The notes below the pieces were generated by a model. It saw only the letters and a list, made by a program, of their open reading frames with translations. It searched no databases and had not been told where the DNA came from. From assembly GCA_964494915.1 (NCBI GenBank), contig CAZBTP010000001.1, positions 6,792 through 70,791 on the forward strand: DNA of 64,000 nucleotides, written 5' to 3'. The translations under genes and the position numbers were made by a program. How positions within the stretch are numbered: the first letter of the stretch is position 1; the number at the start of each line of letters is the position of its first letter. Positions 1,656 through 51,986 of this stretch are shown here, one piece after another. This stretch comes from Candidatus Woesearchaeota archaeon. Lineage in GTDB: Archaea; Nanobdellota; Nanobdellia; Pacearchaeales; GW2011-AR1.

Positions 1656-3107
1656 ATGGCAACAAAAAAATTCTACCTCACAACACCAATCTACTACCCA
1701 AATGACATACCTCATCTTGGGCATGCATATACAACAATCGCAGCCGATGCTCTTGCGCGCTGGCACAGACTACTAGGAAACAAGGTATTCTTCCTTACAG
1801 GAACAGACGAACACGGAAAGAAAATAGCGCGAACCGCAGAAAAAGTAGGAAAAACACCGGAGCAATTTACTGATGCCCTTGTCCCTGAATTCAAAAAAGC
1901 ATGGCACACACTCAATATAACCTACGACCGGTTTATCCGTACAACAGAAGAAGATCATAAAAAAGTCGTTCAATACATCCTCGAGAAAGTCAACGCGAAC
2001 AACGATATCTACAAAGGAATGTACGAAGGACTCTATTGTACAGAGTGCGAGGCATACTACACAGAAAAAGACGTTCCAACCGCCCACTGCCCAATCCACA
2101 AAAAGCCGCTGGAAACACTCAAAGAAGAGTCTTACTTCTTCAGACTTTCAAAATACCAACCTTTTCTCCTCGATTTCTACAAAAAAAATCCAGAATTCAT
2201 CTCGCCAAAAAAGAGAAAACAAGAAATAATCAACCGGGTGAAAGAAGGCCTCAGGGATTTCAGCATCTCACGAACCTCATTCAGCTGGGGCATCCCTCTT
2301 CCATTTGACAAAAAACACATCACCTACGTTTGGTTCGATGCGCTTATCAACTATCTCTCGGGCGTTGATATCCTAAAAAACAAAAAACAATTCTCAACCT
2401 TCTGGCCAGCAGATGTTCACCTCATTGGCAAAGACATCCTCTGGTTTCATGTTGTTTACTGGCCTGCCATGCTCAAATCAGCAGGTATTGAACTTCCAAA
2501 GAAAGTATTTGCACACGGCTTTCTTACCCTTCATAATGAGAAGATAGGAAAATCAGCAGGCAACGCAATCACCATCCAGACACTTATCAATTATGCAGGC
2601 GTTGACACAGCACGCTATTTCCTTCTTCGATCAACACCCTTCGGCGAAGACGGTGACTTCTCAGAACACGCACTCAAAGAAAGACACAATAACGAACTTG
2701 CAAACAAACTCGGAAATCTCGTTACAAGGACAACTGCTCTTGCGGAAAGGTATGGTATCGAGAAGACCCTAATAAAAAGATTATCATCAAAACAACTCTA
2801 TACAAAGATAACAAACTATCTTAAGAATCTTGAATTTGATAAAGCTTTGAATGAGATATTTTCTTTTATTGATCGATGCAACAAATTCATCCAAACGAAA
2901 AAACCCTGGGAAACAAAAGACAAAGAAGTCTTATATGAACTCTGTAATGCCCTCAAAGACATTGCAATCCTCCTCTCCCCATTTCTACCAGAAACATCAG
3001 AAAAAATAGCAACAATACTCAATACCCCAATAACGCTCAAAAACCTCAAAAAACCCCTCCTCATAAACAAAATAAAAAAATCAGAAATCCTATTTAAAAA
3101 GATTTAG
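1656..3107 (+). CDS. metG: methionyl-tRNA synthetase (short form without C-terminal tRNA-binding domain)
   Basis: HLGH motif (PHLGHAYT), KMSKS-like KIGKSAGN, and a Cys-x2-Cys...Cys-Pro knuckle (CTECEAYY...HCP). Confidence 0.93.
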   Translation: MATKKFYLTTPIYYPNDIPHLGHAYTTIAADALARWHRLLGNKVFFLTGTDEHGKKIARTAEKVGKTPEQFTDALVPEFKKAWHTLNITYDRFIRTTEEDHKKVVQYILEKVNANNDIYKGMYEGLYCTECEAYYTEKDVPTAHCPIHKKPLETLKEESYFFRLSKYQPFLLDFYKKNPEFISPKKRKQEIINRVKEGLRDFSISRTSFSWGIPLPFDKKHITYVWFDALINYLSGVDILKNKKQFSTFWPADVHLIGKDILWFHVVYWPAMLKSAGIELPKKVFAHGFLTLHNEKIGKSAGNAITIQTLINYAGVDTARYFLLRSTPFGEDGDFSEHALKERHNNELANKLGNLVTRTTALAERYGIEKTLIKRLSSKQLYTKITNYLKNLEFDKALNEIFSFIDRCNKFIQTKKPWETKDKEVLYELCNALKDIAILLSPFLPETSEKIATILNTPITLKNLKKPLLINKIKKSEILFKKI

Positions 3108-6100
3108 CCGAGACTCTTTCGACATCCAAACGGATAATCAAACCACAAGAACTTAAAACACCGTCGACAAACGCCGAAACCGTTCTCGCTAACACAAACA
3201 TTGCCATCGGGACACTTAAGAAGTTCATAATCCAAAACATTCCCAGCACAATAATACACTCTTAGATTACGCCCCGGATAATAATCAGGATTACAAATAT
3301 CCTTTTGTTCAACGTACCCATCTTCCTGATTCCCTGTCACTGTATTCTTCACCTTTTTTATTGAGTCGTACGAGAGCGGGTCAGATTCCTTTTGTTGAGC
3401 AGCGCTGATCTGACCTCCGGTTCTGGTAGGGAATACTCTCCCCACAGGGTCATTGCATGTGTATCCAAGTTCCGTGGCATCAGTTTGTTCTTGGTTGTTT
3501 GTTTGCGAAGTTTGCGAGGAGGAAAATTTAATTTCTACATTAATTCCGCCATCAGACGTTATCTCTTTAACTTTTATCCTTAAATCATTATCGGGATCAT
3601 AAAACTCTTTTCCAATATTTAAGAAAGAATCTACAAAGTCGGTTCTTGTTATATCTTTAGATTCCTTTGGATAATCTGGCAAAGATTCAGGAGTCATATC
3701 AAGTAAATAGGTTGACCACGATTCATAATCTTCGGGTAAAAGGCCTCTAATTAAAATTCCATTAATATTGATTCCCATTCCCTCAAGACGTTTAAGTTTT
3801 TCGTCAAACCCAATAGATTGTCTAAATTCCAATAAATAAGAAGAAATTTCCAGTCCTTCTTTGTCGGATATAGATATATGATTCTTTAATGGAACTTTTA
3901 TTACTTTTAATTTAGAATTTACTTCTTCCAGAGGATAGAGAGTATAAACTCCGCTTTGCGAAACAACTTGAAAATTACTCTCTTCAAACCAGCCCAGACG
4001 TTTTTTGTGGTTCCCATTAAAATGATAAGCATACAACCTACCTCCCATAACATCAAACACATCGCTATAAGGGTCTATCGAGCACTTGGAGTAATCTTTA
4101 GTTATGATCTCTTTTCCACATTCATAAGTTATTGCATGTCCATTAATACCGAAACTATGTCCCAGCTCATGTGCAAAAACAGTATTTGCGGCAGGAAAAT
4201 GATCTTTTCCTCCCAAACTATCTCCATACGGAGAGAATATTTGGTCGAAGTAAATATGGGAAATGCCTATTTTTATTCTTCCGTCAGGAGTATCAATGAC
4301 TTTTTTTCCAAAAGATGAACTACCAAAAGCACCAGGGCAATTCTCGCGGAATACAATAATAATTCTATCATAATCCGGATAATAAACTTCATTATCGGCT
4401 ATCTCAAAAATTTCTTGATCGGTTCGAGAGCAAGAATCCTCTCCCTCTTTTAAATGATACCATCCATAAACATCCCCTGTCAACCATGTCTTTCCATAGG
4501 ACGCCTCTGTAATAAAACTAGTTATTGATTTTTGTGCCCCAGTATCAAAAATTGCCTTCTGGTAATCTGCTAGAGGGGTTTCACCATTATCGTTTAACAA
4601 ATCTACTAAAATCACAGCAATTTTTTGCTCACCTGATACATCGCCAATTTCAGCACAGCTCGATGCAGTAAAGGTTCGCAGGGGAGAATTCACTCCGTTC
4701 GATATCCATACACTATAGGTACTTCCCTCTTGCAAATTAAACCCGCTTCGTTCAATATATGTTCCAGAACTCGCGTGCCAGAATGTTCTCTCGCCACCGG
4801 ACGGCGCAACAACACTCATTGTTGGAGAAAGTACATAGCTATCCCAATAATCAGTTGGATATTCAGTCGTGTACGAACCAGGAGCAACAGCAATCCAATA
4901 TTTCCCACTTGAGGGGGCACTACCACCGCTCCACGAAATTGTTGCTTTTGACACACCATTCTCACACGAAAGAGACACACTAGGCTTGTTCACTGGCGTG
5001 ACAGAAGAAGTATTCTGAGTAGGTATTGGTTGCGTTGGTTGTTGTGTACTACAAATAGGAGTCGTTATACTAGTCATTCCTGAATTCTTGCCGTTAGAAA
5101 CCCAGAAACTATAAGCTTTATTTTCTTCCAAAACAAATCCTCCTTGTTGAATATATGTTCCATCTTTTGCGTGCCAGAATGCTCTCTCGCCACCATTCCA
5201 AGCAACAACACTTGTTGTAGAAGAACTAACATAGGTATCCCAATAATCAGTTGGATAGGTTGTGTGTAAGCCAGGAGCAACAGCAATCCAATATTTCCCA
5301 CTTGAGGGGGCACTACCACCGCTCCACGAAATTGTTGCTTTTGACACACCATTCTCACACGAAAGAGACACACTAGGCTTGTTCACTGGCGTGACAGAAG
5401 AAGTATTCTGAGTAGGTATTGGTTGCGTTGGTTGTTGTGTACTACAAATAGGAGTCGTTATACTAGTCATTCCTGAATTCTTGCCGTTAGAAACCCAGAA
5501 ACTATAAGCTTTATTTTCTTCCAAAACAAATCCTCCTTGTTGAATATACGTTCCAGAACTCGCGTGCCAGAATGTTCTCTCGCCACCGGACGGCGCAACA
5601 ACACTTGTCGTAGAAGAAGTAATATAAGTATATGTAGAAGAATTAACATTAGTACCTATAAAAGAACTGACATACGTATCCCAGTAATCAGTCGGATAGG
5701 TTGTGTGTGAACCAGGAGCAACAGCGATCCAATATCTCCCACTTGAAGGAGCACTACCACCACTCCATGAAATTGTTGCTTTTACAACGTTTCCATCACA
5801 AAACGCATTCACACTTGGCGCATTCGTCGGTATTATCTGAGGGCTCGTCCCGCTACATCTTTGGGCAGAAAATCTTGTTATTAGCGAATTTGAATTTGCA
5901 CCCTTCGATACCCATACACTATACTCAGCTCCATCTTCTAACGAGAATCCTCCTTGTTGAATATACGTTCCAGAACTCGCGTGCCAGAATGTTCTCTCGC
6001 CACCGGACGGCGCAACAACACTCATTGTTGGAGAAAGTACATAGCTATCCCAATAATCAGTTGGATAGGTTGTGTACGAACCAGGAGCAATAGCGATCCA

Positions 6101-6319
6101 ATATCTGTCACTCGCAGGATTAGGATCGCCACTCCAAACGATACTCGCTTTTGAGACACTATTTTCACAATACGTTTGCACAAAGGGTTGCGTAACCGGA
6201 CTTAATTGCGGACGCTTAAAACCGAACCATTCAAGAATATCATCGCCAAGCCCAGCAGAAACAAAGGGAATACCTAATAGTAAAACAATAACAAATCCAA
6301 GATAAATAATAGTTCTCAT
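3104..6319 (-). CDS. giant secreted modular protein with four approximately 100-aa W/Y-rich Cys-bounded repeat modules, a zinc metalloprotease domain (M6/InhA-like, HELGH) and a Cys-rich C-terminal domain
   Basis: Signal peptide MRTIIYLGFVIVLLLGIPFVSA. Repeated modules VSKATISWSGGSAP..YWIAVAPG..YPTDYWD..GGERTFWH..YSFWVSNG. PT-rich linkers QQPTQPIPTQNTSS. Protease region EQKIAVILV...EASYGKTWLTGDVYGWY...HELGHSFG. C-terminal GYTCNDP...CRRCFKFLWFDYPFGC. Confidence 0.7.
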   Translation of the reverse strand: MRTIIYLGFVIVLLLGIPFVSAGLGDDILEWFGFKRPQLSPVTQPFVQTYCENSVSKASIVWSGDPNPASDRYWIAIAPGSYTTYPTDYWDSYVLSPTMSVVAPSGGERTFWHASSGTYIQQGGFSLEDGAEYSVWVSKGANSNSLITRFSAQRCSGTSPQIIPTNAPSVNAFCDGNVVKATISWSGGSAPSSGRYWIAVAPGSHTTYPTDYWDTYVSSFIGTNVNSSTYTYITSSTTSVVAPSGGERTFWHASSGTYIQQGGFVLEENKAYSFWVSNGKNSGMTSITTPICSTQQPTQPIPTQNTSSVTPVNKPSVSLSCENGVSKATISWSGGSAPSSGKYWIAVAPGLHTTYPTDYWDTYVSSSTTSVVAWNGGERAFWHAKDGTYIQQGGFVLEENKAYSFWVSNGKNSGMTSITTPICSTQQPTQPIPTQNTSSVTPVNKPSVSLSCENGVSKATISWSGGSAPSSGKYWIAVAPGSYTTEYPTDYWDSYVLSPTMSVVAPSGGERTFWHASSGTYIERSGFNLQEGSTYSVWISNGVNSPLRTFTASSCAEIGDVSGEQKIAVILVDLLNDNGETPLADYQKAIFDTGAQKSITSFITEASYGKTWLTGDVYGWYHLKEGEDSCSRTDQEIFEIADNEVYYPDYDRIIIVFRENCPGAFGSSSFGKKVIDTPDGRIKIGISHIYFDQIFSPYGDSLGGKDHFPAANTVFAHELGHSFGINGHAITYECGKEIITKDYSKCSIDPYSDVFDVMGGRLYAYHFNGNHKKRLGWFEESNFQVVSQSGVYTLYPLEEVNSKLKVIKVPLKNHISISDKEGLEISSYLLEFRQSIGFDEKLKRLEGMGININGILIRGLLPEDYESWSTYLLDMTPESLPDYPKESKDITRTDFVDSFLNIGKEFYDPDNDLRIKVKEITSDGGINVEIKFSSSQTSQTNNQEQTDATELGYTCNDPVGRVFPTRTGGQISAAQQKESDPLSYDSIKKVKNTVTGNQEDGYVEQKDICNPDYYPGRNLRVYYCAGNVLDYELLKCPDGNVCVSENGFGVCRRCFKFLWFDYPFGCRKSLG
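4877..5547. repeat. intragenic tandem duplication in gene 3104-6319: about 280 nt of perfect identity at 390-nt offset
   Basis: The string from ccaggagcaacagcaatccaatatttcccacttgagggggcactaccaccgctcc to ccttgttgaatata occurs identically at about 4877-5157 and about 5267-5547. Confidence 0.8.
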
Positions 6320-6420
6320 CGTCCTCCTTCTTATATAAAATAATATGTCTCAATTTATATATCTTACTGCAAGTATCAAGAATAAAATATATTTACGCTA
6401 AAGCGAAAGATCTTCGTCAC

Positions 6421-6620
6421 CAATCAATCCAGAACCCTCTCGTTAATACCCTTCCACTCACGAAAGGCTTTTTCATACCGCTCCTCATAAACAAAATAAA
6501 AAAATCAGAAATCCTATTTAAAAAGATTTAGCCGAGACTCTTTCGACATCCAAACGGATAATCAAACCACAAGAACTTAAAACACCGTCGACAAACACCG
6601 AAACCATCTTCATTGATACT
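6421..6620. repeat. mosaic intergenic spacer made of copied gene 3' ends (NTase 11663 region, MetRS 3057-3107, secreted gene 3108-3185)
   Basis: 6425-6485 matches 11667-11727 with 3 mismatches. 6481-6531 equals 3057-3107 exactly. 6532-6612 equals 3108-3188 with about 1 mismatch. Confidence 0.85.
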
Positions 6621-6662
6621 TGTCGATTTAGAAATTATTACCTATGTACCTATGGGGATAGG

Positions 6663-9600
6663 CTATAAGTTCCTTTTGACATCCTCGAGATACTTGCTGT
6701 AGCCGCTTAGTACCTTTTGACATCCAAATGGGTAATCGAACAACCAGAAGTTAAAGCATCTTCGACAAGCACCAACCCAAAAACCAAGATTCTTATCATT
6801 GATACATATATGGTTCTCTGGACACTTAAGTATTTCATATTTTAGTGCATTCCCAACACAATAAGGCACCTGCAGATCATAACCAGAAGGACTACAAAGA
6901 TCTGATACTTCAAAATCTCCTACTCCTTGATTTCCCGTAACAGTATTCTTCTCCTTTTTTATTAAGTCGTATGAGAGGGGATTGAGTATCATATCTTTAT
7001 TACTTCTACCTGGTCTTGTAGGGAATACTCTCCCCGCAGGGTCATTGCATGTGTATCCAAGCTGTCCTGCGTCAACAACAGCAGGCGCAGGCGGTGTTGT
7101 TGATCCTTCAGCTCCACTACATGTAACACTAACGCTATTGCTATTCGCGTCTAATCCTTCATCACCGCCATCGATGTAATAGGTATGACTTCTGACAGAG
7201 GCTTCAAAACTAGTTGACAGCAAGGTCTGCCCGATAACTACATCACTTGGTTGCTCAACAAACTTTACAACTTGATTATTCTCTACAACATTATATCCGC
7301 TAACTGAATTAATACTGGCCCATGATAAATCAACGCGTGTACCGCTGCAGAAGCCAGCTAGTGAGATCTCGAACTGTGTTGGTGTTGGCGTTGTTGTACC
7401 CGGTGTCGGACTTTGAACATCTCGGGGCGGACTAATACAATAATAGATCACTCTTCCATTTCTATCTTCAAACGATCCTATAACACTATCGCTCCCGCAA
7501 CCGTTATACTGAACATACACATTTGTCAAGAACACGGTATTTTCTGAAAATGAAGACTTCCTCACACACTGATACACGACCGCCCCCTTTCCGTCAAGGA
7601 ACCAACTGCCAACACGATCGCCCACGATCCCACAACCTTCTGCACTATCGCGGAAGTAAACATGAGTAACATACTCTTTTCCAGGACTACCAACAGACTT
7701 CCGTACACAATGATTAATCCGCCGTCCATTAGCATCATCAAACCAACTTGTAACATCATCACCCCCACAAGTATCATACTGAAAATAAGCCCCTTCCACA
7801 ATCCCTATTGAAACAGTCAAGGGAGGCGTCGTAATACCATTCGCCTTTAACTCTCGGAAGATATTCCTCGCCAAACCAGGATCGCGTTGGCTACCAAAAA
7901 ATCCCCCAGGTTTCTCAAACAAGAAATCAACCAGTGTCTCCTGAAATGCAGCATCAATCCTTCCAGAACTCAACCTGCTTTGCAACGTATCAGCCATCGA
8001 ATTACTCAATTCGCGAACACGCTGAACAGCAGAACTACCTAGATCAGAACTGAGTGTGGCATCATCAACAATAAGTTCTTTCAATACCTTCTCGCCAAGT
8101 TCAGCATTCCGCGGCGTATTCAAAAGACCACGAACACCATAGAGGTAATCTAACAAACTAATCTGAAACTCAACATCAATATTACGCGCATTAAACTTCG
8201 TCTCTAAATTACTTGCCATCCCTGGATCTTTATCCTGTAAATAACTGATAACTTCGTCTTTCAACGCACCGCTAATCATATATCCATTTAACACAATAGG
8301 TAATGTTCCTTCTCCACCTTGTTCTCCTCCAGTTCTACCAGATACAATATCAGCACAGCTCATTGCGGTAAAGGTTTGCAGAAGAGAATTCACTCCATTT
8401 GATATCCATACACTATAGGCACCCCCTTCCTGCAAGGTAAACCCACTCTGTCCGATATATGTTCCAGAACTCGCGTGCCAGAATGTTCTCTCGCCACCAG
8501 ACGGAGCAACAACACTGGTCGTAGAAGAACTAACATACGTATCCCAATAATCAGTTGGGTAGGTTGTGTGTGAGCCAGGAGCAATAGCGATCCAATATCT
8601 CCCAGTTGAAGGAGCAGCGCCACCAGACCATGAAATCGTTGCTTTTGAGACGCCATTCTCACACAAAAGGGACACACTAGGCTTGTTCACTGGCGTGACA
8701 GAAGGAGTATTCTGAGTAGGTGTTGGTTGCGTTGGTTGCTGTGTACAAATAGGAGTCGTTATACTAGTCATCCTTGAATTCACGCCGTTAGAAACCCAGA
8801 AACTATAAGCTTTATTTCCTTCCAAAACAAGCCCACTTTGTCCGATATATGTTCCATCTTTTGCGTGCCAGAATGTTCTCTCGCCACCAGACGGAGCAAC
8901 AACACTTGTCGTAGAAGAACTAACATATGTATCCCAATAATCAGTTGGATATTCGGTCGTGTACGAACCAGGAGCAACAGCGATCCAATATCTCCCAGTT
9001 GAAGGAGCAGCGCCACCGCTCCACGAAATCGTTGCTTTTGCAACGTTTCCATCACAAAACGGAGTTAAAGATGGAGGATTCACCGGCGCTATCTGAGGAG
9101 GGGTGGCTGTAGTGGTTGGCGTCGGTGTAGGTTGTGGAGTTAATTGTTGCGTACAAATAAGGGCACGGAAATGGGTCCTTCCTGAATTCACGCCATTAGA
9201 TACCCAGTAAGTATACTCTTTCGTTGGTTCCAAAACAAATCCTCCTTGTTGAATATACGTACCGTCTTTCACATGCCAAAATGTTCTCTCGCCACCAGTT
9301 GGAACAACAACACTTGTTGTAGAAGAACTTACATAGCTGTCCCAGTAATCAGTTGGATAGGTTCCATATAAGCCGGGAGCAACAGCAATCCAATATCTTC
9401 CACCTGAGGGAGCACCACCACCGCTCCACGAAATCGTTGCTTTTGCAACGTTTCCATCACAAAACGGAGTTAAAGATGGAGGATTCACCGGCGCTATCTG
9501 AGGAGGGGTGGCTGTAGTGGTTGGCGTCGGTGTAGGTTGTGGAGTTAATTGTTGCGTACAAATAAGGGCACGGAAATGGGTCCTTCCTGAATTCACGCCA

Positions 9601-10361
9601 TTAGATACCCAGTAAGTATACTCTTTCGTTGGTTCCAAAACAAATCCTCCTTGTTGAATATACGTACCGTCTTTCACATGCCAAAATGTTCTCTCGCCAC
9701 CAGTTGGAACAACAACACTTGTTGTAGAAGAACTTACATAGCTGTCCCAGTAATCAGTTGGATAGGTTCCATATAAGCCGGGAGCAACAGCAATCCAATA
9801 TCTTCCACCTGAGGGAGCACCACCACCGCTCCACGAAATCGTTGCTTTTGAAACATCATTTTCACAAAACGTAAGCACCGTTGGAGTCACGCGGCAACCT
9901 GAGGCAATAAACTGTATTATTTGAGAGTTCGCCCCATTTGAGATCCATACACTATAAGTACTTCCACTTTGCAAGGTAAACCCACTTTGTTCAAAATATG
10001 TTCCGGAACTTGCATGCCAGAATGCTCTATCGCCACCAGTTGGAACAACAACACTTGTCGTAGAAGAACTTACATAGCTGTCCCAGTAATCAGTTGGATG
10101 AGTTGCATGTACACCAGGAGCAACAGCAATCCAATATCTTCCACCTGAGGGAGCACTACCACCGCTCCACGAAATCGTTGCTTTTGAAACATCATTTTCA
10201 CAGTAAACGCGTACTCCGATTTGATTTATAGGTTCCGGACTCAATTGCGGACGCTTAAAACCAAACCATTCAAGAATATCATCGCCAAGCCCAGCAGAAA
10301 CAAAGGGAATACCTAATAGTAAAACAATAACAAATCCAAAATAGATTGTAGTTCTCATCAT
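6663..10361 (-). CDS. giant secreted modular protein paralog with six W/Y-rich repeat modules, no HExxH domain, a triplicated small Cys motif, an FN3-like segment and the shared Cys-rich C-terminal domain
   Basis: Signal peptide and first 40 aa nearly identical to gene 3104-6319, as are the 5'-end nucleotides 10270-10361 versus 6228-6319. Same module consensus and C-terminal GYTCNDPAGRVFPTRPG...CRRCFNFWLFDYPFGCQK. Confidence 0.7.
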   Translation of the reverse strand: MMRTTIYFGFVIVLLLGIPFVSAGLGDDILEWFGFKRPQLSPEPINQIGVRVYCENDVSKATISWSGGSAPSGGRYWIAVAPGVHATHPTDYWDSYVSSSTTSVVVPTGGDRAFWHASSGTYFEQSGFTLQSGSTYSVWISNGANSQIIQFIASGCRVTPTVLTFCENDVSKATISWSGGGAPSGGRYWIAVAPGLYGTYPTDYWDSYVSSSTTSVVVPTGGERTFWHVKDGTYIQQGGFVLEPTKEYTYWVSNGVNSGRTHFRALICTQQLTPQPTPTPTTTATPPQIAPVNPPSLTPFCDGNVAKATISWSGGGAPSGGRYWIAVAPGLYGTYPTDYWDSYVSSSTTSVVVPTGGERTFWHVKDGTYIQQGGFVLEPTKEYTYWVSNGVNSGRTHFRALICTQQLTPQPTPTPTTTATPPQIAPVNPPSLTPFCDGNVAKATISWSGGAAPSTGRYWIAVAPGSYTTEYPTDYWDTYVSSSTTSVVAPSGGERTFWHAKDGTYIGQSGLVLEGNKAYSFWVSNGVNSRMTSITTPICTQQPTQPTPTQNTPSVTPVNKPSVSLLCENGVSKATISWSGGAAPSTGRYWIAIAPGSHTTYPTDYWDTYVSSSTTSVVAPSGGERTFWHASSGTYIGQSGFTLQEGGAYSVWISNGVNSLLQTFTAMSCADIVSGRTGGEQGGEGTLPIVLNGYMISGALKDEVISYLQDKDPGMASNLETKFNARNIDVEFQISLLDYLYGVRGLLNTPRNAELGEKVLKELIVDDATLSSDLGSSAVQRVRELSNSMADTLQSRLSSGRIDAAFQETLVDFLFEKPGGFFGSQRDPGLARNIFRELKANGITTPPLTVSIGIVEGAYFQYDTCGGDDVTSWFDDANGRRINHCVRKSVGSPGKEYVTHVYFRDSAEGCGIVGDRVGSWFLDGKGAVVYQCVRKSSFSENTVFLTNVYVQYNGCGSDSVIGSFEDRNGRVIYYCISPPRDVQSPTPGTTTPTPTQFEISLAGFCSGTRVDLSWASINSVSGYNVVENNQVVKFVEQPSDVVIGQTLLSTSFEASVRSHTYYIDGGDEGLDANSNSVSVTCSGAEGSTTPPAPAVVDAGQLGYTCNDPAGRVFPTRPGRSNKDMILNPLSYDLIKKEKNTVTGNQGVGDFEVSDLCSPSGYDLQVPYCVGNALKYEILKCPENHICINDKNLGFWVGACRRCFNFWLFDYPFGCQKVLSGYSKYLEDVKRNL
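9016..9825. repeat. perfect 405-bp (135-codon) tandem duplication, two copies, inside gene 6663-10361
   Basis: About 433 nt starting caccgctccacgaaatcgttgcttttgcaacg is identical at 9013-9445 and 9418-9850. The encoded module LTPFCDGNVAKATISW...QIAPVNPPS appears twice verbatim. Confidence 0.9.
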
Positions 10362-10575
10362 CCCCTTTTCGTATCTACTAATCTCCTTCTTCCTTTATAT
10401 ACTTTATTGTCTATTCAGTTGTTCCGATGTGCAAATTGGACAGAAGAAGAGAAAAAGAAAATCCGAGATAATTTACTGAAATATTGTGAGTGTGATACTT
10501 TGGCAGAGGTTATGATTGTTGAGAGGTTGGGGAGATTGTTAATGAGTGAGTAACCATCTCTGAGGAACTAAGTCT

Positions 10576-10983
10576 CTAGCTATTTTTCAATTCCTCGACA
10601 ATTTTTTTGCATTTTTCTATTGCTTGTTTTGCGGTTTCATAATCCATCCTGTTTCCGTAATAAGTAAGGGAGTTTCTTTTATACCTTAAGTCATCAATTA
10701 ATATATACAAATCCTCTCTTTTTAGAACATCCCTTAAATAATAACCTAAGCAAATATGGTTTAATATGTTGAATCCTTTTTTGAAAGCCATTGCCTGCAA
10801 TAATTCAAGCAATGAAGTATAATAATCTTCAAATATAAAATTGCAGTTTTTTTCATTCACTTCTTTAATTAAGTTCATTCTTTCGCTTGCAGTCTCTTGT
10901 AAAGATTCTGCTCTTTTTAGGTCAGGAGTTATAGTTTTAGCTGATTTATTGATTAAGCAATCATCCCAGTTTGCTTCTTTCAT
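10576..10983 (-). CDS. HEPN-domain protein (partner of the adjacent minimal nucleotidyltransferase)
   Basis: 135-aa helical protein overlapping by 4 nt (ATGA) with the upstream MNT gene. R-x(4-6)-H-like region LRYKRNSLTYYG. Typical MNT-HEPN pair arrangement. Confidence 0.55.
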   Translation of the reverse strand: MKEANWDDCLINKSAKTITPDLKRAESLQETASERMNLIKEVNEKNCNFIFEDYYTSLLELLQAMAFKKGFNILNHICLGYYLRDVLKREDLYILIDDLRYKRNSLTYYGNRMDYETAKQAIEKCKKIVEELKNS

Positions 10984-11513
10984 CTAAAAACCTCCACAAA
11001 TCCATTTAATAAAAAGCCGTTTATAACATTATTTGCTAAATGAGGATTTGATAATTCATTAAGATTTTTATGCTGGAATACTTGTATTCTTCTTTTAAGT
11101 AATTTTTCAAATTTTTCAAAAATTACTTTTCTCTTTGAAGGGGTTTCTATATATAAGTCAATATCGCTTTCTTCTGTGTCTTCTCCTTTTGCAAAAGAAC
11201 CGAAAAGAACAATTGCGGGGTTGCTTAATTCCTGTTTTAGATACTCTATAAGCCCTGATTCATATATCTTTTTTATATTGCAGAGCTTTTTTTCCAAGAG
11301 GTATTTTTCACTGCTCCTATTTGCTGTGTAGAAATTAACATTGCCTGTTTTAACTGCTGTTAAAATGCTTTCTTTTTCCAGTTCTTTGCAATATCTTATA
11401 ACAGAAGGAAGAGAAAGTTTAAGGGTTCTTTCTATCTCTCTTACCCTAAGTTTAGCATTAGGATTAACAAAGAAGTATTCACTGATTGTTTGCTTGATAT
11501 CTTTTCTTTTCAT
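10980..11513 (-). CDS. minimal nucleotidyltransferase (MNT) with N-terminal winged-helix domain
   Basis: GSFAKGEDTEESDIDLYIE matches GS-x(9-13)-DxD of the pol-beta NTase superfamily. N-terminal wHTH-like LSLPSVIRYCKELEKESIL. Confidence 0.7.
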   Translation of the reverse strand: MKRKDIKQTISEYFFVNPNAKLRVREIERTLKLSLPSVIRYCKELEKESILTAVKTGNVNFYTANRSSEKYLLEKKLCNIKKIYESGLIEYLKQELSNPAIVLFGSFAKGEDTEESDIDLYIETPSKRKVIFEKFEKLLKRRIQVFQHKNLNELSNPHLANNVINGFLLNGFVEVFR

Positions 11514-11662
11514 TTGATAATATAAAGTATCAACTGATATTTAAAGTTATCGACTTTGTGTAATTACTTACCTTTCTGAAGTAAATCTGACATAAAACTC
11601 ATAGGATTATTTGATTGCAGTTTTGGAGTGAACCCCTAAAATTGGACACATAGTTAAGCTAA

Positions 11663-12403
11663 CTAATCCAGAACCTTTTCATTAATACCCTTCCACTCAC
11701 GAAAGGCTTTTTCATACCGCTCCCAGGTATCCGTTGGAAACCATTGTCCTTGAAACAAGAAACCCGCGAGCTGCCCCCGCGAGGCAAGAATCGGCCAAAT
11801 CTCTCGCTCAATCGAAACAGCCCTCTCTTCAGGAATCAGATCAATAACAGAAGGTTCTAGGACATACAATCCAGAGCTAATCAATTTGCTCGGTGCTTCA
11901 TGCGCGAGCGGCTTTTCCACAAATCTTTTTATTTTATTATCCTCAAGATCTGCAACCCCATAGCCTGTAATATCCTCAAGCTCCTTCAACGCAATCGTTG
12001 CCAACACGCCTTGTTGCGCATGAAAATCATGGAAGACATCAAGGTTAACATCCTTTAACTCATCGCCATTACACATATAAAACCTTTCTTTTAATAAGCC
12101 TCGAGCTAGCCGTAGTGCCCCTGCAGTTCCCATCGGCTGATTCTCAATAACATATCGTATCCGCACACCAAACCTTGAACCATCGCCAAAATACCGCATA
12201 AACTGCGACGCCTTATACCCGATCGCAAGAACAATCTCTTGAACATTGTGTCTCTTAAACAACTCAATCCCATGTTCCAGAATCGGCTTTCCATGAATTG
12301 GAATCATTAATTTTGCGACTTCATACGTTAACGGTCGTAACCGCGTTCCCAATCCTCCTGCAAGAATAAACGCCTTTGTTGGTGTTTCCATTACCACAAA
12401 CAA
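11663..12403 (-). CDS. sugar-1-phosphate nucleotidyltransferase (RmlA/GlmU-like NTP_transferase)
   Basis: FILAGGLGTRLRPLT G-rich loop. Probable true start at METPTK (about 12391). Confidence 0.85.
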   Translation of the reverse strand: MFVVMETPTKAFILAGGLGTRLRPLTYEVAKLMIPIHGKPILEHGIELFKRHNVQEIVLAIGYKASQFMRYFGDGSRFGVRIRYVIENQPMGTAGALRLARGLLKERFYMCNGDELKDVNLDVFHDFHAQQGVLATIALKELEDITGYGVADLEDNKIKRFVEKPLAHEAPSKLISSGLYVLEPSVIDLIPEERAVSIEREIWPILASRGQLAGFLFQGQWFPTDTWERYEKAFREWKGINEKVLD

Positions 12404-12445
12404 AAGTTAAGACATATAAACACTTTGCTTCTCAATTATATACGC

Positions 12446-13153
12446 TTAATACCTCCCACCAAGATAAACCTGTTTGATTTTTCGATGGCGAAGAATTCTC
12501 TTCCCAGATCCCTGAAGGACAATCGCTCCATCCTCAAGCACATACGTTCTATCAGCAATCTCAAGAGCCTTCTTCGCATTTTGTTCAACAATCAAAAGTG
12601 ACATATCAAACTGATCACGAAGTTTCGCAATGGTCTTAAATAATTCTGTCTGTATTTTAGGAGAAAGCCCAAGAGAAGGCTCATCAAGGAGAAGCAAAGA
12701 AGGTTGTTGCATCAATGCCCTCCCCAGTGAAAGCATCCGCCGCTCGCCCCCGCTCAACACATACGCAAACTCCTTCCGCCGCTCCTGCAGAAAAGGAAAT
12801 TGCGCATAAACAAGAGAAAAGCGTGCGTCTCGCTCTTTTAGCGTAAAACGAACACCAAGACCTAGATTCTCTTCAACACGAAGATTCTCAAAAATAACCC
12901 TCCCTTGATTAACATAGCAAAGACCTTTCTTTATGAGCTCATACGGCTTCAAACCAACAATGCTTGTTCCTTCAAATAAAATCTCTCCTTTACGAATCTC
13001 TACAAGATTAAAAATAGACCTCAACAATGTACTCTTCCCAGCTCCATTTGGTCCAATAAGCGCAACAATCTCATTCTTCTCAACCTTGAGTGTTATTCCC
13101 TTCAAAATATCTAATCCGTTATATCCTGAATAAAGTCCCTTAATCTCAAGCAT
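12446..13153 (-). CDS. livF: branched-chain amino acid ABC transporter ATP-binding protein LivF
   Basis: Walker A GPNGAGKSTLL, signature LSGGERRML, Walker B LLLDEP. Likely start at MLEIKGL, overlapping livG by 8 nt (track ORF extends to 13252). Confidence 0.85.
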   Translation of the reverse strand: MLEIKGLYSGYNGLDILKGITLKVEKNEIVALIGPNGAGKSTLLRSIFNLVEIRKGEILFEGTSIVGLKPYELIKKGLCYVNQGRVIFENLRVEENLGLGVRFTLKERDARFSLVYAQFPFLQERRKEFAYVLSGGERRMLSLGRALMQQPSLLLLDEPSLGLSPKIQTELFKTIAKLRDQFDMSLLIVEQNAKKALEIADRTYVLEDGAIVLQGSGKRILRHRKIKQVYLGGRY

Positions 13154-13910
13154 CACTCCCTCCCAAATATGCATCGAGAACCTTTTTGTTCCTTCGAATC
13201 TCTCGAGGCTTCCCTTGAGCAATAACCTCCCCATGATCCAATACATAGACATAATCTGCCAAGTCCATTACAAAATTCATATCATGTTCAATAAGCAAAA
13301 TACTTTCTCCTTCTCTCTTTAATTGAACAAGAATATCTCGTATCTTTCCCCGTACTTCAGGGTGAACACCTGCAACAGGTTCATCAAGGAGTAAAAATGA
13401 ATGTTTTCTCGTAAGTGCCATCGCGAGATCAAGTAATTTTCGCTGCCCAAAACTCAGCGTAGAAGGCAAAGCATCAAGATCAACGTATAAACCAACGCGC
13501 CGAAGAATCTTCAGGATCCTTTCGTCATCGAAAGCGCGCGGAACAAATAATCCCCGTAATAATCGTTCATAATCCTCTGACAATGCAAGCTCAAGGTGCT
13601 CTCGGACACTCAAGCTCTGAAACAGCCTTACTTCTTGAAATGTCCGTGATATACCGCGTCGTGCAACCGCATAATCCTCGAACCCTTCAAAATGCGCTCC
13701 ATCATAAACAATCGAGCCACTATCCTCCACTTCAATCCGTGAAATCACATTAAAGAGCGTTGTCTTCCCGCTTCCATTTGGCCCAATCAACGCAATAATC
13801 TTTTTCTTCTGAACCGTTAAGGTACACGAATCAAGCGCATGAACGCCTCCAAAGCTCTTCACGATTCTCTCTACTTTAATCATGTAAATCAACTCCCCCG
13901 TACAAACCAC
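13146..13910 (-). CDS. livG: branched-chain amino acid ABC transporter ATP-binding protein LivG
   Basis: GPNGSGKTTLFN, LSFGQRKLLDLA, LLLDEP. Start possibly at MIKVERI (about 13883). Confidence 0.85.
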   Translation of the reverse strand: MVCTGELIYMIKVERIVKSFGGVHALDSCTLTVQKKKIIALIGPNGSGKTTLFNVISRIEVEDSGSIVYDGAHFEGFEDYAVARRGISRTFQEVRLFQSLSVREHLELALSEDYERLLRGLFVPRAFDDERILKILRRVGLYVDLDALPSTLSFGQRKLLDLAMALTRKHSFLLLDEPVAGVHPEVRGKIRDILVQLKREGESILLIEHDMNFVMDLADYVYVLDHGEVIAQGKPREIRRNKKVLDAYLGGSDA

Positions 13911-14751
13911 GTGGACGTTTCATCAAAATAAAAAGCAACACGAGCCCATAAAGAATCTGTCTTCCTGGCCCAATAATACTGCTCGGTAATGGAACAAATC
14001 GCATGAGCTCTGCCAAGAGAATAATAACAAACGTTGCGAGAATCGACCCCTTGAACGAAGCAAGACCCCCAACAATCACAATACTAAGAATAAGGATAAG
14101 CTCATGAATAGAAAAAATGTTTGGATCAATATAGCCAAGGTAATGAGCCAATAAACTCCCTGCAATACCAACAAAAAAAGCAGAAATGCCCATCGTAATG
14201 TACTTTAATCGTTTTGTATTAACACCGAACATTCTGAGTCCAACTTCATCATCACGCATTGCAGCTAAGAGCGTTCCAAACCCAGAGCGAACAATTCGGA
14301 AGAGCACAAATAAGGAAACAAGAGCAATACCAGACACAAAAAGAAGATACAGGAGGTTCTCTTCGAGAACAAAACCAAAAAACGCAGATCGTGGTATGCC
14401 TGGAATCCCAAGAGGCCCGCGGGTTATCCCAACGAGATTTAAGAGTAAAGAATGAATCACAAACGCAAACCCAAGGGATGCGAGCGCATAGTAATCCCCT
14501 CGCAGCTTCTTTGTAGCGAACACCAAAAAAAAACCAAAAAAACTCGCAAGAAGTCCTGCCGCAAGAAACGCAACAAAAAAAGGAACACCGCGCAACACAA
14601 GCAATGTCGAAGTATACGCACCAACCCCAAAGAGCGCAACATGTCCAAGATTCAGCAATCCAGAATAACCAAGAGCAAGATTAAGACTCGTAATAACAAT
14701 AAGATAAATCCCAATCAGGATGAGAATATGAACAAGATAAGGTACGATCAT
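13876..14751 (-). CDS. livM: branched-chain amino acid ABC transporter permease LivM
   Basis: Polytopic membrane protein in the livFGMH order. 4-nt overlap with the upstream permease. Confidence 0.8.
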   Translation of the reverse strand: MIVPYLVHILILIGIYLIVITSLNLALGYSGLLNLGHVALFGVGAYTSTLLVLRGVPFFVAFLAAGLLASFFGFFLVFATKKLRGDYYALASLGFAFVIHSLLLNLVGITRGPLGIPGIPRSAFFGFVLEENLLYLLFVSGIALVSLFVLFRIVRSGFGTLLAAMRDDEVGLRMFGVNTKRLKYITMGISAFFVGIAGSLLAHYLGYIDPNIFSIHELILILSIVIVGGLASFKGSILATFVIILLAELMRFVPLPSSIIGPGRQILYGLVLLFILMKRPRGLYGGVDLHD

Positions 14752-15626
14752 GATATCCTCCGTTTTATACGAACAATCCCTTCAGGTTTAAACAAGAGAA
14801 ATAAAAACAAAAGAACAAACGAAATCGCATCTTTATATCCAGAGGGTAAAAATAAAATACCAATATTCTCAGCTAACCCAAGAAGGTATGATCCGAAAAC
14901 AGAGGCAGGAACAGAGCCGATACCACCGATAATTGCGCCGCTGAAACCCTTAATAATCAACTGCGTCCCACCATACGGCGTTATGTTCTGTTCAAGTGCA
15001 ATAAAAATACCTGCAACACCTGCGAGAAAAGAACCGATAAAAAACGAAAGACCAGAGACCCTTGTACTATGAATACCGACAAGAGAGGCAAGTTCTTTAT
15101 TATGAGAAACAGCCCGCATCTCTCTCCCAAAAGACGTTTTCTGCATAAACAGAAAGAGAAGAACGAAAAGAATGAGTGAAGAAAAGAAGAGAGTAAGTTG
15201 AAAAGGAGTTGCCTGAACACCGAGGAAACTAACTCCTTCCTTGATTTCAATATACCCAACGTCCTTGACACTTGCCCCGTATATAAGTAACATTATATTC
15301 TGAAACAAAACAAGAAGAGAGAGCGACACAATAAGAAGAATAACACGACTCGCCTTCCTCTTTTCGAATGGATAGTAAATAAATACATACATAAAAAAAC
15401 CAAGAAAGCTCGCATAGAACACTGCTAACAACACAGAAAAAACAAAATGAAAACCAACAACATGAAAGAACGTATAGACAAGATAGCCTGCAAAAACAAC
15501 AATACCACCATGAGCAAAATGCATGAAACGATTCGTCATACTAATCAAGGTAAATCCTGAAGCAACGAGAGCGTAAATCGATCCTGCAATAAGTCCATTA
15601 ACAACAAGCTGTAAAATCAAAGACAT
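14748..15626 (-). CDS. livH: branched-chain amino acid ABC transporter permease LivH
   Basis: Polytopic membrane protein of the LivH/BPD_transp_2 type in the operon. Confidence 0.8.
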   Translation of the reverse strand: MSLILQLVVNGLIAGSIYALVASGFTLISMTNRFMHFAHGGIVVFAGYLVYTFFHVVGFHFVFSVLLAVFYASFLGFFMYVFIYYPFEKRKASRVILLIVSLSLLVLFQNIMLLIYGASVKDVGYIEIKEGVSFLGVQATPFQLTLFFSSLILFVLLFLFMQKTSFGREMRAVSHNKELASLVGIHSTRVSGLSFFIGSFLAGVAGIFIALEQNITPYGGTQLIIKGFSGAIIGGIGSVPASVFGSYLLGLAENIGILFLPSGYKDAISFVLLFLFLLFKPEGIVRIKRRIS

Positions 15627-35042: not shown

Positions 35043-35128
35043 CGTCCCGGAGAGGACTCGAACCTCTGACCCCATGGTGTCTGTACGACGATAACAGCCA
35101 TGTGCTCTGCCAGCTGAGCTACCGGGAC
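35043..35128 (-). tRNA. tRNA-Asn (anticodon GUU) with 13-nt intron after position 37
   Basis: Cloverleaf GUCCCGG-UA-GCUCAGCUGGCAGAGC-A-CAUGG[CUGUUA+UCGUCGUACAGAC+A]CCAUG-GGGUC-AGAGGUUCGAGUCCUCU-CCGGGAC-G. No CCA encoded. Confidence 0.75.
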
Positions 35129-36929: not shown

Positions 36930-37205
36930 ATGGATGAAACACGAGACAACTTCGACATCTTTTTCAGGCGAAAACCTGCGATGATGTTGGTTGCATTAAA
37001 GCGGATCACACGAGTACGTTACGGAAGCATACTTGCAAAGGAGGTTGACTGTACGTATAGTCATGCTGTCAAGATTCTGCAAAGCCTCGAGCGTTTAGGA
37101 TTGGTAATGTTTGAGAAGAAAGGAAGGATAAAGTTAATTAAACTTACAAAAAGAGGACAAGAAGTTGCTGAGAATATAGAGAATATTAAAAAATCAATTA
37201 GTTAG
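36930..37205 (+). CDS. winged-helix transcriptional regulator
   Basis: 91-aa wHTH-like YGSILAKEVDCTYSHAVKILQSLERLGLV. Its last 6 codons lie within the 72-bp direct repeat. Confidence 0.5.
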   Translation: MDETRDNFDIFFRRKPAMMLVALKRITRVRYGSILAKEVDCTYSHAVKILQSLERLGLVMFEKKGRIKLIKLTKRGQEVAENIENIKKSIS

Positions 37206-37256
37206 GACCTCGTTGCATAAAAGAGCGCCTGTGCTTAAATTGCCGCTGTCTCTTCA
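37185..37256. repeat. 72-bp perfect direct repeat, left copy, bracketing the HEPN-MNT cassette
   Basis: attaaaaaatcaattagttaggacctcgttgcataaaagagcgcctgtgcttaaattgccgctgtctcttca is identical at 37185-37256 and 38277-38348. Confidence 0.9.
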
Positions 37257-37268
37257 CTGTCATGATGT

Positions 37269-37754
37269 TTGAATGGCCCAGACGGACTTCGTGATAAAAA
37301 GTTTCAAAGTAGGGTAATCTCAACATCTTTGTTTTCTGGAAAGTTTTTTATACCGCCTCTTCTTAGATCAAAAATGAGAAAGGAAGTCGGCAATTGGTTA
37401 AAACAGGCAAATAAAGACTTAGAAGTAGCAGAAAAGAATATCAAAATTGAAGAATATTACTCTGCTGTTTTTTGGTGCCAGCAAGCTGTTGAAAAAGGAT
37501 TAAAAGCAGTATATATACTAAAACATAATACCTTGCCGCCAAAAATACACGACTTAGTAGAAATTTGTAGATTGGTAAAGGCACCAGACAACATAGTCTT
37601 GCTGTCCGGGAAGATCGTCACAGCATACATATTCTCACGTTATCCGGGGGCTGCTCCAGAGATGCCCGAAGACTATTATGACAAGGGCAAGGCAGAAGAA
37701 CATGTTAAAATAGCTAAGGAGGTTCTAGAATGGGTTATAAAACTGATAAAATAA
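37269..37754 (+). CDS. HEPN-domain protein
   Basis: FWCQQAVEKGLKAVYILKHNTLPPKIHDL, typical of the HEPN helical core. Start may be MRKEVGN at about 37374. Confidence 0.6.
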   Translation: MNGPDGLRDKKFQSRVISTSLFSGKFFIPPLLRSKMRKEVGNWLKQANKDLEVAEKNIKIEEYYSAVFWCQQAVEKGLKAVYILKHNTLPPKIHDLVEICRLVKAPDNIVLLSGKIVTAYIFSRYPGAAPEMPEDYYDKGKAEEHVKIAKEVLEWVIKLIK

Positions 37755-38047
37755 TTAATTCTTTTGTAAAAAAAGTTAGAAATAAGGTTCCTTCGTCAAG
37801 AATTTATTTATTTGGCTCTAGGGCGAGGGGAACTGCAAAAAAAGGTAGTGATTACGACTTCCTTATTATAAGTAAGGATTTCAGAAATTTTAATTTTGAA
37901 GAAAGATCTGCCAAGATTTATTTTCTAAAAAGAAAGATTCCTGCGGCGATGGATATTTTATGCTACACTCCAGAAGAATTTGAAAAAAAGAAAAAGCAGA
38001 TTGGTATTGTTAAAATCGCTGTTGAAGAGGGAATCGAGATAAAATGA
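37730..38047 (+). CDS. minimal nucleotidyltransferase (MNT)
   Basis: IYLFGSRARGTAKKGSDYDFLII (GS-x9-DxD). Overlaps HEPN gene end. Confidence 0.7.
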   Translation: MGYKTDKIINSFVKKVRNKVPSSRIYLFGSRARGTAKKGSDYDFLIISKDFRNFNFEERSAKIYFLKRKIPAAMDILCYTPEEFEKKKKQIGIVKIAVEEGIEIK

Positions 38048-38160
38048 TATTATTTTACTTTATTATCGGCTTGATTGAAATTCTATTATTTTTGTTCTTG
38101 TCGCTTAATGGAACTTATTTATCCAGATTATGTGTCCCTCTTGAAAAATTAGATTGTATT

Positions 38161-38277
38161 ATCAAAAAAACTTTGAGTTTTACCACACCTTAAAAGATGT
38201 GGTTTGTTAGTTTTTTGGATGCTCAAGGAACTTCCGCATCTTGAAAGGTGCGGTTTTCGTCAAGTTCCTTGACATAA
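38161..38277. repeat. structured repeat element, copy 1 (two nested hairpins plus ACAUAA tail); second copy at 60690-60807
   Basis: atcaaaaaaactttgagttttaccacacc..gtgg..gctcaaggaact.ccgca.cttgaaaggtgcggttttcgtcaagttccttgacataa is shared with 60690-60807 with about 5 differences, which are positioned to preserve pairing (G-U wobble). Confidence 0.75.
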
Positions 38278-38348
38278 TTAAAAAATCAATTAGTTAGGAC
38301 CTCGTTGCATAAAAGAGCGCCTGTGCTTAAATTGCCGCTGTCTCTTCA
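38277..38348. repeat. 72-bp perfect direct repeat, right copy
   Basis: Identical to 37185-37256. Its reverse complement encodes the C-terminal 19 aa of the Toprim ORF. Confidence 0.9.
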
Positions 38349-38724
38349 TCGTATTATCGAGGTTTTCTACCTTCGTCATAAAGTTATGAATGCCTTCGAT
38401 ATGCGGAATATTTGCTTTGATAAGAATGCCACGGAGTGCTGAATCAATGCGACACCCTAATTCCTGGAGAATTGGTTTGATTGTTTCGTAAAGTTTTCTC
38501 CCTCGTTTGTCAAGATCCGTAAGGATACAGATTTTCTCTTTTTTACCGAGTCCAGCGACAATTTCTTCGATTCTCTCTCTAAGAGGGACAGCTGTTTTGT
38601 GGATTGTATAGACTTTATCGAAACCAAAGAGACGGAGTGCATCCCTATCCTTTTTTCCTTCAACAAGAATAACGTACGCTTTGAAGGATTCAATTTCATT
38701 TCTGAGCCTTTGATTGAATTTCAT
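38290..38724 (-). CDS. small Toprim-domain protein
   Basis: VILVEGKKDRDAL...ICILTDLDKRGRKL matches the Toprim E...DxD pattern. C-terminus encoded inside the 72-bp repeat. Confidence 0.55.
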   Translation of the reverse strand: MKFNQRLRNEIESFKAYVILVEGKKDRDALRLFGFDKVYTIHKTAVPLRERIEEIVAGLGKKEKICILTDLDKRGRKLYETIKPILQELGCRIDSALRGILIKANIPHIEGIHNFMTKVENLDNTMKRQRQFKHRRSFMQRGPN

Positions 38725-44501: not shown

Positions 44502-44885
44502 ATGACTATGAAAGACTTGTTTGATGCAAAGATCGTGTGTAAGCAATGTGACGTACAGATGAAACCAATCTACGTCGAAAAGTCTGGTTTTCGTCTGCGA
44601 GCAATTCACTGTCCACACTGCAATGATAAGATTATTCATCCCGGAGATTTACACGATTTAGAGCAGTATAATGGCTTGCGGCAGAAAACGTTCGATGTGA
44701 AATTACGTATGGTAGGAAACAGCCATGCAATCAGTATCCCGAAAGAGATTGTTGATTTTATTAATGAAACACACCAGCGCATGCATAAACAGATGAGCGA
44801 TATGGTACGTTTAGGATTTGAGGATTTTGGAAAGTTGAGCATTACATTTTTTAATGATGCTCAAAAGAGGGGGCGCGAATGGTAA
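44502..44885 (+). CDS. zinc-ribbon plus AbrB/SpoVT-like (swapped-hairpin) small protein, translationally coupled to cdc48
   Basis: CKQCD...CPHCN ribbon. [22 protein letters not shown] resembles AbrB/MazE. Stop overlaps the CDC48 start (ATGG at 44879). Confidence 0.5.
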
Positions 44886-48619: not shown

Positions 48620-48711
48620 TCGTATTTTGAAACCGAAAAAAAATCGCTCAAAGAACTCCTTTCCAATTGGCATGGGGCGTCGGTTTCGATCGTGATTTGA
48701 AGCTTGGACCC

Positions 48712-48742
48712 TCTCACGCTAGGTCCCTCTCATCTCTTTTTC
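48712..48742. repeat. 31-bp direct repeat (copy 1) flanking the protease gene 48897-51782
   Basis: tctcacgctaggtccctctcatctctttttc is identical at 48712-48742 and 51777-51807. Confidence 0.85.
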
Positions 48743-48896
48743 TTTTTTAGCATGTTTTAATTAACGGGCTGGACCGCGGGGAATTATTCGACTGCACGTA
48801 CCGTCAATGCAAATCTCTTCTTCTATGCATTCCTGAAGTTGTTCTTCTCGAACACCGCAGGTGTCAACCGAGTAAACATCCGCATTGAAACATATT

Positions 48897-51782: not shown

Positions 51783-51807
51783 GCTAGGTCCCTCTCATCT
51801 CTTTTTC
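51777..51807. repeat. 31-bp direct repeat (copy 2), overlapping the protease GTG start
   Basis: Identical to 48712-48742. Confidence 0.85.
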
Positions 51808-51986
51808 CTTTTTTTGCAATTGTAATATCCACTATTAATCTTCAATCGATTATTTAAGTTAATCATTGTTTTTATTCCTTTCGTTGCTTGATACTATTTA
51901 AAGGATCCTTACCAAGATATACATATACATCAGATAAGAAAAGAAACAAAGCACGCTCCTCCTAACAAGACCAAAAAGTTTCAAGT

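Follow-up and report, generated by a model that had tools for sequence, protein, structure and literature searches.

A patchwork of copied gene 3' ends between two secreted-protein genes of a DPANN archaeon

Junction microhomologies have been documented for spontaneous duplications in Salmonella (PMC3411829), and microhomology-mediated tandem duplication has been surveyed across life (bioRxiv 10.64898/2026.02.28.708716). PMC5361080 (citing de Vries & Wackernagel 2002 and Jackson et al. 2009) deals with homology-facilitated illegitimate recombination and with effector/Rhs 3' ends that are displaced one after another, and complex FoSTeS/MMBIR rearrangements with templated insertions have been reviewed (PMC2583991). 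The locus analysed here, an intergenic spacer between two large secreted-protein genes, shares features with each of these systems. It is a tidy new instance of a known mechanism, the microhomology-mediated unequal join, and not a new kind of element, and its history is more complex than a single duplication.

The window, that is, the whole 64-kb stretch of DNA that was analysed, belongs to a DPANN (Woese/Pacearchaeota-type) archaeon, the relatives of its MetRS all being metagenome-assembled genomes (MAGs) of such archaea; MCM, eRF1 and L15e are present on the ENA contig matching the window. The genes around the spacer are as follows.

1656-3107, plus strand: MetRS (Pfam tRNA-synt_1g, E = 1e-107)
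3104-6319, minus strand: gene 1, secreted repeat protein of 1071 aa, with a 4-nt overlap between its stop and that of MetRS
6663-10361, minus strand: gene 2, secreted repeat protein of 1232 aa, with an L003-like central domain and 5' flank (L003 is the nearest other species, see below)
10576-10983, minus strand: weak HEPN-like ORF (HEPN E = 0.048, below the cut-off), overlapping the MNT gene
10980-11513, minus strand: MNT nucleotidyltransferase (Pfam NTP_transf_2, E = 2.5e-10)
11663-12403, minus strand: sugar nucleotidyltransferase, NTase (Pfam NTP_transferase, E = 3e-40)

The gene 1 protein has a signal-peptide-like N-terminus, repeats of ~131 aa, a Cys-rich C-terminus and a central domain with HExxH, for which the reprolysin-like assignment is weak. 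The N-terminus, repeats and C-terminus are common to both secreted proteins, whereas the central domains differ and are non-homologous. Near-identical repeats (97%) lie at 4866-5165 and 5259-5558, and again at 8968-9267 and 9373-9672. No tRNA was found near the spacer, and neither the called genes within +/-10 kb of it nor the ORFs scanned with Pfam include an integrase or transposase. The locus thus differs from site-specific att-type integration, in that its direct repeats have no associated integrase or transposase within +/-10 kb.

The patchwork of copied gene ends in the spacer is real and has the following parts.

6320-6423, minus strand: gap of unit 1, 104 nt, putatively the stretch that first separated the secreted gene from the NTase stop
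6424-6484, minus strand: NT', the last 19 codons and stop of the NTase gene (tblastn 18/19 aa)
6481-6484, no strand: CTCC microhomology at the NT'/M' join, common to both donors
6481-6531, plus strand: M', the last 16 codons and TAG of MetRS, an exact relic (51/51)
6532-6619, minus strand: G', a displaced 88-nt secreted-gene 3' end encoding (S)INEDGFGVCRRCFKFLWFDYPFGCRKSLG, whose TAA stop (6529-6531) overlaps the end of M'
6620-6662, no strand: 43 nt without a match between G' and the gene 2 stop, containing a local CCTATGTA tandem
6659-6684, minus strand: partial copy, 26 nt long, of the 3' end of gene 2 itself (81% identity to 6700-6725), in which the last gene 2 residues are read from another frame

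The first-pass annotation had read the spacer as three copied 3' ends, and a comparison of the locus with itself, by self-BLAST and directly, confirmed all three. The NTase copy, which had been placed at 6425-6485 versus 11667-11727, has the three mismatches described, though in a register that was off by 3 nt: the counterpart of NT' is the NTase 3' end at 11665-11723, which matches 6426-6484 at 56/59 (E = 2e-21). In the codon before this match the stops differ, TCA (= TGA) at 6424-6426 versus CTA (= TAG) at 11663-11665. The inner 42 nt of NT' are identical to the NTase gene, and the outer 19 nt, next to the stop, carry every difference: AAT to AAC and GAA to GAG (both synonymous), AAG to AGG (K to R), and the stop-to-stop change TAG to TGA. 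With five substitutions only, these changes are suggestive of another, coding-constrained allele of a working NTase rather than of the decay of a dead fragment. The MetRS' relic M' derives from the 3'-terminal 51 nt of MetRS (3057-3107), and the copy is exact and includes the TAG, as had been claimed. The copy of about 80 nt of the gene 1 3' end was likewise borne out (6532-6612 versus 3108-3188, 76/81); its core, 6532-6605, matches the 3'-terminal 74 nt of gene 1 (3108-3181), the source of most of G', at 73/74, with ~14 more diverged nt beyond. The whole block 6481-6605 matches at 124/125 (E = 1e-65), and past 6605 the family homology reaches 6619 but no longer tracks gene 1.

The proposed fusion through a short microhomology was also found: CTCC at 6481-6484 is common to the NTase and MetRS donors and sits inside a 7/8 match between them (ACCGCTCC vs ACCCCTCC), the chance of a microhomology of at least 4 nt at a random join being ~0.016. 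The remaining parts of the spacer yielded less. Alignment of 6620-6662 to L003, to the NTase region and to the 3' end of MetRS yielded no significant match (p = 0.18-0.9), and this segment matches nothing elsewhere in the window. The positions of 6620-6662 or 6620-6705 would suit a 139-nt tandem re-duplication; the idea that they are what is left of an older MetRS 3' end was unsupported when the alignment was compared with shuffles (p = 0.18-0.53). Comparison of the distal gap (6366-6425) with sequence downstream of the NTase, with sequence upstream of gene 2 and with the L003 gap gave nothing significant, and 6366-6423 has no match within the window.

The single-copy state was examined in 80 GTDB and 80 JGI loci anchored on MetRS. 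The neighbourhood is shared only by L003, the nearest other species (MetRS 83% aa) and the sole informative relative and outgroup genome; 160 other MetRS loci have no secreted gene. In L003, MetRS (10001-11452, plus) has a stop overlapping that of a single secreted gene (to 14151/14178, minus), which is followed by the NTase gene (14241-14987, minus), and the locus carries no relics and no HEPN/MNT pair. The synteny comparison therefore found in a relative the ancestral state that had been supposed from the window, with MetRS converging on a single secreted gene beside the NTase. The gap between the secreted gene and the NTase is 89 nt in L003, and that between gene 1 and NT' is 104 nt in the window. 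NT' and M' are both oriented as their source genes, so that the distal end of one unit is joined head to tail to the proximal end of another, with a period of 3424 nt; the equivalent L003 span is ~2900 nt. Taken together, the order and orientation of NT' and M', the L003 layout and the 104-nt gap indicate a head-to-tail join of two L003-like units, and the polarity of the event follows, because such a join requires starting units whose NTase and MetRS ends lay apart. The HEPN-like/MNT pair (10576-11513) occurs in unit 2 only and is absent from unit 1 and L003. Wider searches added little: the closest MetRS in a scan of JGI metagenomes, at 69% identity, lacked the synteny, a word-indexed protein search for relatives of the secreted proteins returned only the two proteins of L001 (a contig from another sample, below), and an exhaustive HMMER search returned only P0001 and P0002 plus four weak matches.

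In these respects the locus is like RecA-independent microhomology-mediated tandem duplication: distal and proximal ends are joined head to tail over a few bases that they share, the outgroup has a single copy, and the leftover direct repeats (129 nt and 59 nt) could drive further gain or loss. Unlike such duplications, the units here are not near-identical, since they differ in their central domains, in a toxin-antitoxin pair present in one of them and in an extra displaced 3' end; a plain duplication into sister copies is therefore insufficient.

The repeat-rich nature of the locus, and the variation in length of genes 1 and 2 from one assembly to another (669/1097 aa in L001 vs 1071/1232 aa in the window), might suggest a chimera in the assembly of the MAG. 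This is extremely improbable, since the spacer is identical across samples and k-mer sizes: it is 100% identical in L001 (ERZ27284378, k=139), an independent assembly from another sample. A 4-nt overlap, moreover, cannot yield a de Bruijn-graph join, which makes an artefact of this kind unlikely. The 129-nt repeat also behaves as a true repeat should. The k=119 contig of a third assembly (L002) ends within it, as expected, and the k=139 contig reads across. BLAST had at first made L001 appear to be a diverged strain (97.6% over 8829-14718); on re-alignment, the differences proved to be repeat-collapse artefacts plus ~9 SNPs at 10500-10999, so that L001 represents the same population and not an outgroup. 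These ~9, out of few true SNPs between the window and L001, lie in and just downstream of the HEPN-like gene, and outside the repeats the remaining 15-kb locus is essentially identical. Across the L001 segment 11449-17095, which corresponds to window 3104-10361, gene 1 has three fewer and gene 2 one fewer of the ~131-aa (393-nt) repeats, which reflects either true copy-number variation or short-read repeat collapse. Searches for exact protein matches yielded contigs of this one population and no others.

The relics are far more recent than the paralogs. Those at the join are 98-100% identical to their sources, unlike genes 1 and 2, which share 67-81% identity in the C-terminal 370 nt and ~68% at the 3' ends; the units are therefore not colinear copies of matching divergence. 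Between the combined G' and M' relic and gene 1/MetRS there are 8 differences in 139 aligned nt, and the relic has the L003 state at 8/8, with 0 private changes; seven of the eight gene-1-specific changes cluster within 16 nt (3182-3197). G' thus has a gene-1-type part (6532-6605) and an L003-like part (6602-6619, 17/18) where gene 1 carries the 7 clustered changes. The identity of NT' switches from 42/42 to 14/19 and that of G' from 73/74 to ~11/18, a pattern that does no more than suggest a homologous crossover.

Relative to L003, genes 1 and 2 are blockwise complementary mosaics (runs test p = 0.014). In the first block (window 7014-7100) gene 2 is identical to L003 at 84/87 nt, in the second gene 1 is closer to L003 (81% vs 69%), and in the third gene 2 is closer again (83% vs 70%). 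The central domain of L003 is of the gene 2 type, and a paralog with 33% identity to the gene 1 type lies at 48897-51782. The nucleotide identity between the window and L003 is 78% for MetRS and 75% for the NTase, and the 84/87 block seen against these values suggests a recent exchange of surface-protein segments between lineages. Since the L003 secreted gene is itself a mosaic with respect to both paralogs, allele shuffling blurs any dating. The first-pass annotation had taken the spacer as a footprint of the event that created the tandem paralogs; a join of two MetRS-to-NTase units is indeed recorded there, but its relics are younger than the paralogs, and the paralogs are most likely not sister copies that diverged afterwards.

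The end of gene 2 adds another layer. Gene 2's own 3' end is L003-like and is separated from G' by 43 nt of unmatched sequence, and G' falls with gene 1 rather than gene 2, which marks it as an extra, displaced 3' end. An exact 13-mer, CCTTTTGACATCC, occurs at 6672-6684 and 6713-6725, within 26-nt copies (6659-6684 and 6700-6725) that are 81% identical. The tandem duplication that had been described at this end is only partly borne out, the period being 41 nt and not 31. The gene 2 C-terminus is, as claimed, longer than that of gene 1 (and of L003), by 12 residues, but the cause is a lost stop: the ancestral TAA is now TAC (6699-6701), and translation continues into the repeat. Three nested secreted-gene ends therefore lie downstream of gene 2, namely its own, the 26-nt copy (6659-6684) and the 88-nt G' (6532-6619). 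As in Rhs/effector displacement, old 3' ends appear to have been pushed downstream and persist as orphans at a locus that codes for a variable secreted protein. Unlike the C-terminal displacement of Rhs, CDI and T6SS proteins, there is no toxin/immunity logic, the orphans being 26-88 nt of a conserved C-terminus, so that the likeness is one of form only. No ORF of at least 40 aa and no Pfam toxin or immunity hits were found in the orphan modules of the spacer, and the C-terminus forms the conserved, Cys-rich portion of the protein.

The account that we favour, and hold to be somewhat more probable than its negation, is that the scar goes back to a single illegitimate crossover, preceded by a 3'-end displacement, which joined two previously diverged haplotypes of a hypervariable surface-protein locus, and that the spacer is otherwise non-functional. 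Haplotype A would have consisted of MetRS, gene 1, the gap and the NTase, and haplotype B of MetRS, the G' relic, gene 2, the HEPN-like/MNT genes and the NTase. In haplotype B, one or more earlier displacements of the gene 2 3' end would have left G' and the 26-nt repeat; an additional event of this kind is assumed for the structure formed by G', the 43 nt and the end of gene 2. An unequal illegitimate crossover at CTCC would then have cut the NTase 59 nt before its end and MetRS 51 nt before its end, setting two MetRS-to-NTase units head to tail with the period of 3424 nt and leaving the spare copies of the cut 3' ends as the relics NT' and M' plus G'. Both housekeeping genes are intact, for the 3' ends that were cut came in duplicate, one with each unit. 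That the relics are so nearly identical to their sources would reflect conserved housekeeping ends common to both haplotypes. A single join of haplotypes could in this way cover the join itself, the near-identity of the relics, the allelic-looking NT', the toxin-antitoxin pair found in one unit and the divergence of the genes. Such a joining would resemble homology-facilitated illegitimate recombination, in which one side is homologous (here MetRS or the NTase) and the other is joined at a 3-8-nt microhomology, with donor and recipient roles that we infer. Neither haplotype A nor haplotype B alone was found in the GTDB representatives, JGI metagenomes or protein libraries.

A simpler history would be an in-place, sister-chromosome tandem duplication of one secreted gene, after which the copies diverged and short-patch gene conversion kept the relics near-identical. 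The join topology and the single-copy outgroup fit this history equally well, blockwise exchange is seen between the paralogs, and the abrupt drops in identity at 6605/6606 and 6442/6443 are like those at the ends of conversion tracts. It would nevertheless require two independent conversions (one from the NTase, one from MetRS/gene 1), each ending exactly at the join; the flank supposed to be unconverted (6602-6619) has not decayed, being identical to L003 at 17/18; and the extra G', the non-homologous central domains and the toxin-antitoxin pair of one unit are left unexplained. Given young relics, diverged mosaic genes and a G' that is not the end of gene 2, duplication in place followed by divergence is insufficient: a single duplication with divergence needs at least two further events, or else units that were already different when joined. 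We regard this history as unlikely.

It could also be that the two secreted genes were already adjacent and that the spacer was patched by FoSTeS/MMBIR-like template switches, which copied 59 nt of the NTase and ~140 nt of the MetRS/gene 1 junction. The spacer is like such rearrangements in that short segments from nearby loci, two or three of them, are stitched at microhomology; the donors are at distances of 3.4 and 5.2 kb, the relic is of very recent origin, and a second two-donor patch exists at 38161-38348. It is unlike them in that the order and orientation of the segments are not scrambled but exactly those of a simple unit-to-unit join (~1 in 8 chance), with the left boundary at the NTase stop codon, where the NTase copy begins exactly, and only one junction is open to inspection for microhomology. 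Moreover, the remaining 104 nt resemble the L003 gap in length and promoter, the outer 18 nt of G' have no present template in the window, and the differences in NT' look like coding-constrained alleles and not like copying errors. Templated patching is accordingly judged a little less probable than in-place duplication, and both stand behind the crossover between haplotypes.

As for present-day roles, an SD-like GGAGGA (6323-6328) occurs in the gap, as does a TATA-like TTTATATATCTTAC (6354-6367), and a TATA-like TTTATATA(C/T)CTTA motif lies at an equal distance from the start codon in gene 1, gene 2 (10394-10406) and L003; to judge from these motifs, the gap likely contains the gene 1 promoter. 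The minus strand of M' presents T5, T7 and T4 runs downstream of gene 2, the T5/T7 runs (6495-6525) being the first after its stop, and a hairpin-plus-T match at 6547-6531 is identical to one at 3123-3107, at the end of gene 1. These T-runs, on the antisense strand of M', probably serve as an archaeal terminator of gene 2. Nothing suggests any function of the spacer beyond promoter and terminator. A functional element could be imagined as a trans-antisense RNA to the MetRS mRNA (51 nt, in the gene 2 3' UTR), a structured RNA, or a reserve of orphan 3' ends with which the C-terminus of the surface protein could be switched. Were gene 2 transcripts to read through, M' would be perfectly complementary to the end of the MetRS mRNA, and the three nested 3' ends downstream of gene 2 would fit such a reserve. 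Searches for known or structured RNA in the spacer gave a best Rfam hit of E = 0.23 (14.7 bits vs a 39-bit cut-off) and a folding energy no better than shuffles (z = -0.39); the spacer has no conserved ORF and none of at least 40 aa. L003 has no such spacer, and the orphan ends are only 26-88 nt long and code for the conserved, not the variable, part of the protein. A functional element is thus a very unlikely explanation.

In addition to the spacer, a second patchwork with the same interleaved topology was found at 37185-38348. There, the 72-nt overlap of two convergent genes, a wHTH gene (36930-37205, plus) and a Toprim gene (38290-38724, minus), is duplicated exactly, 37185-37256 recurring at 38277-38348. 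The copies enclose a HEPN gene (37269-37754), an MNT gene (37730-38047) and a 117-nt element (38161-38277), the last being a 95.7% copy of intergenic 60690-60806 that is joined with a 1-nt overlap. The insertion is present in all contigs found for the population. The 117-nt element has strong predicted hairpins (RNA fold z = -4.95; 0/200 shuffles as stable), and no Rfam match above noise was obtained for it. The two recognisable MNT/HEPN pairs of the 64-kb window are thus both situated just inside insertions flanked by direct repeats of 59-129 nt (6426-11723 and 37185-38348), and these repeats are gene 3' ends or convergent-gene junctions. A broader reading, which appears improbable, is that this DPANN lineage gains toxin-antitoxin segments by recurrent, integrase-free, target-duplicating insertion at gene 3' ends, and that serial 3'-end displacement at the surface-protein locus could then feed surface variation.

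Several other features of the window were observed. The gene 1-type paralog at 48897-51782 (minus) is a secreted metallopeptidase-like gene (961 aa), 33% identical to the central domain of gene 1, and a ~60-nt copy (90%) of its start-codon region and upstream leader (51767-51826) is found at 48702-48760, just downstream of its 3' end and adjoining the CDC48 stop; this copy may be the relic 5' end of another duplication. The CDC48-like AAA ATPase (1246 aa, 44879-48619, plus) has an apparent intein-like insert, and the eRF1 gene of L001 (1774-4185, minus) has an intein with a LAGLIDADG domain according to precomputed Pfam hits. ARAGORN reports an 86-nt 'tRNA-Stop' with anticodon TTA at 35043-35128 (minus), which could be a misread intron-containing tRNA or a suppressor-like tRNA.

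The locus provides a base-pair-resolved case of a genome-reduced DPANN archaeon expanding and reshuffling its large secreted-protein genes. That copied gene ends are what is seen in such spacers may be because, in a compact genome with overlapping convergent genes, both neighbours survive only those events in which the overlapped 3' ends are duplicated. The direct repeats of 129 nt and 59 nt predict continuing copy-number instability at this locus.
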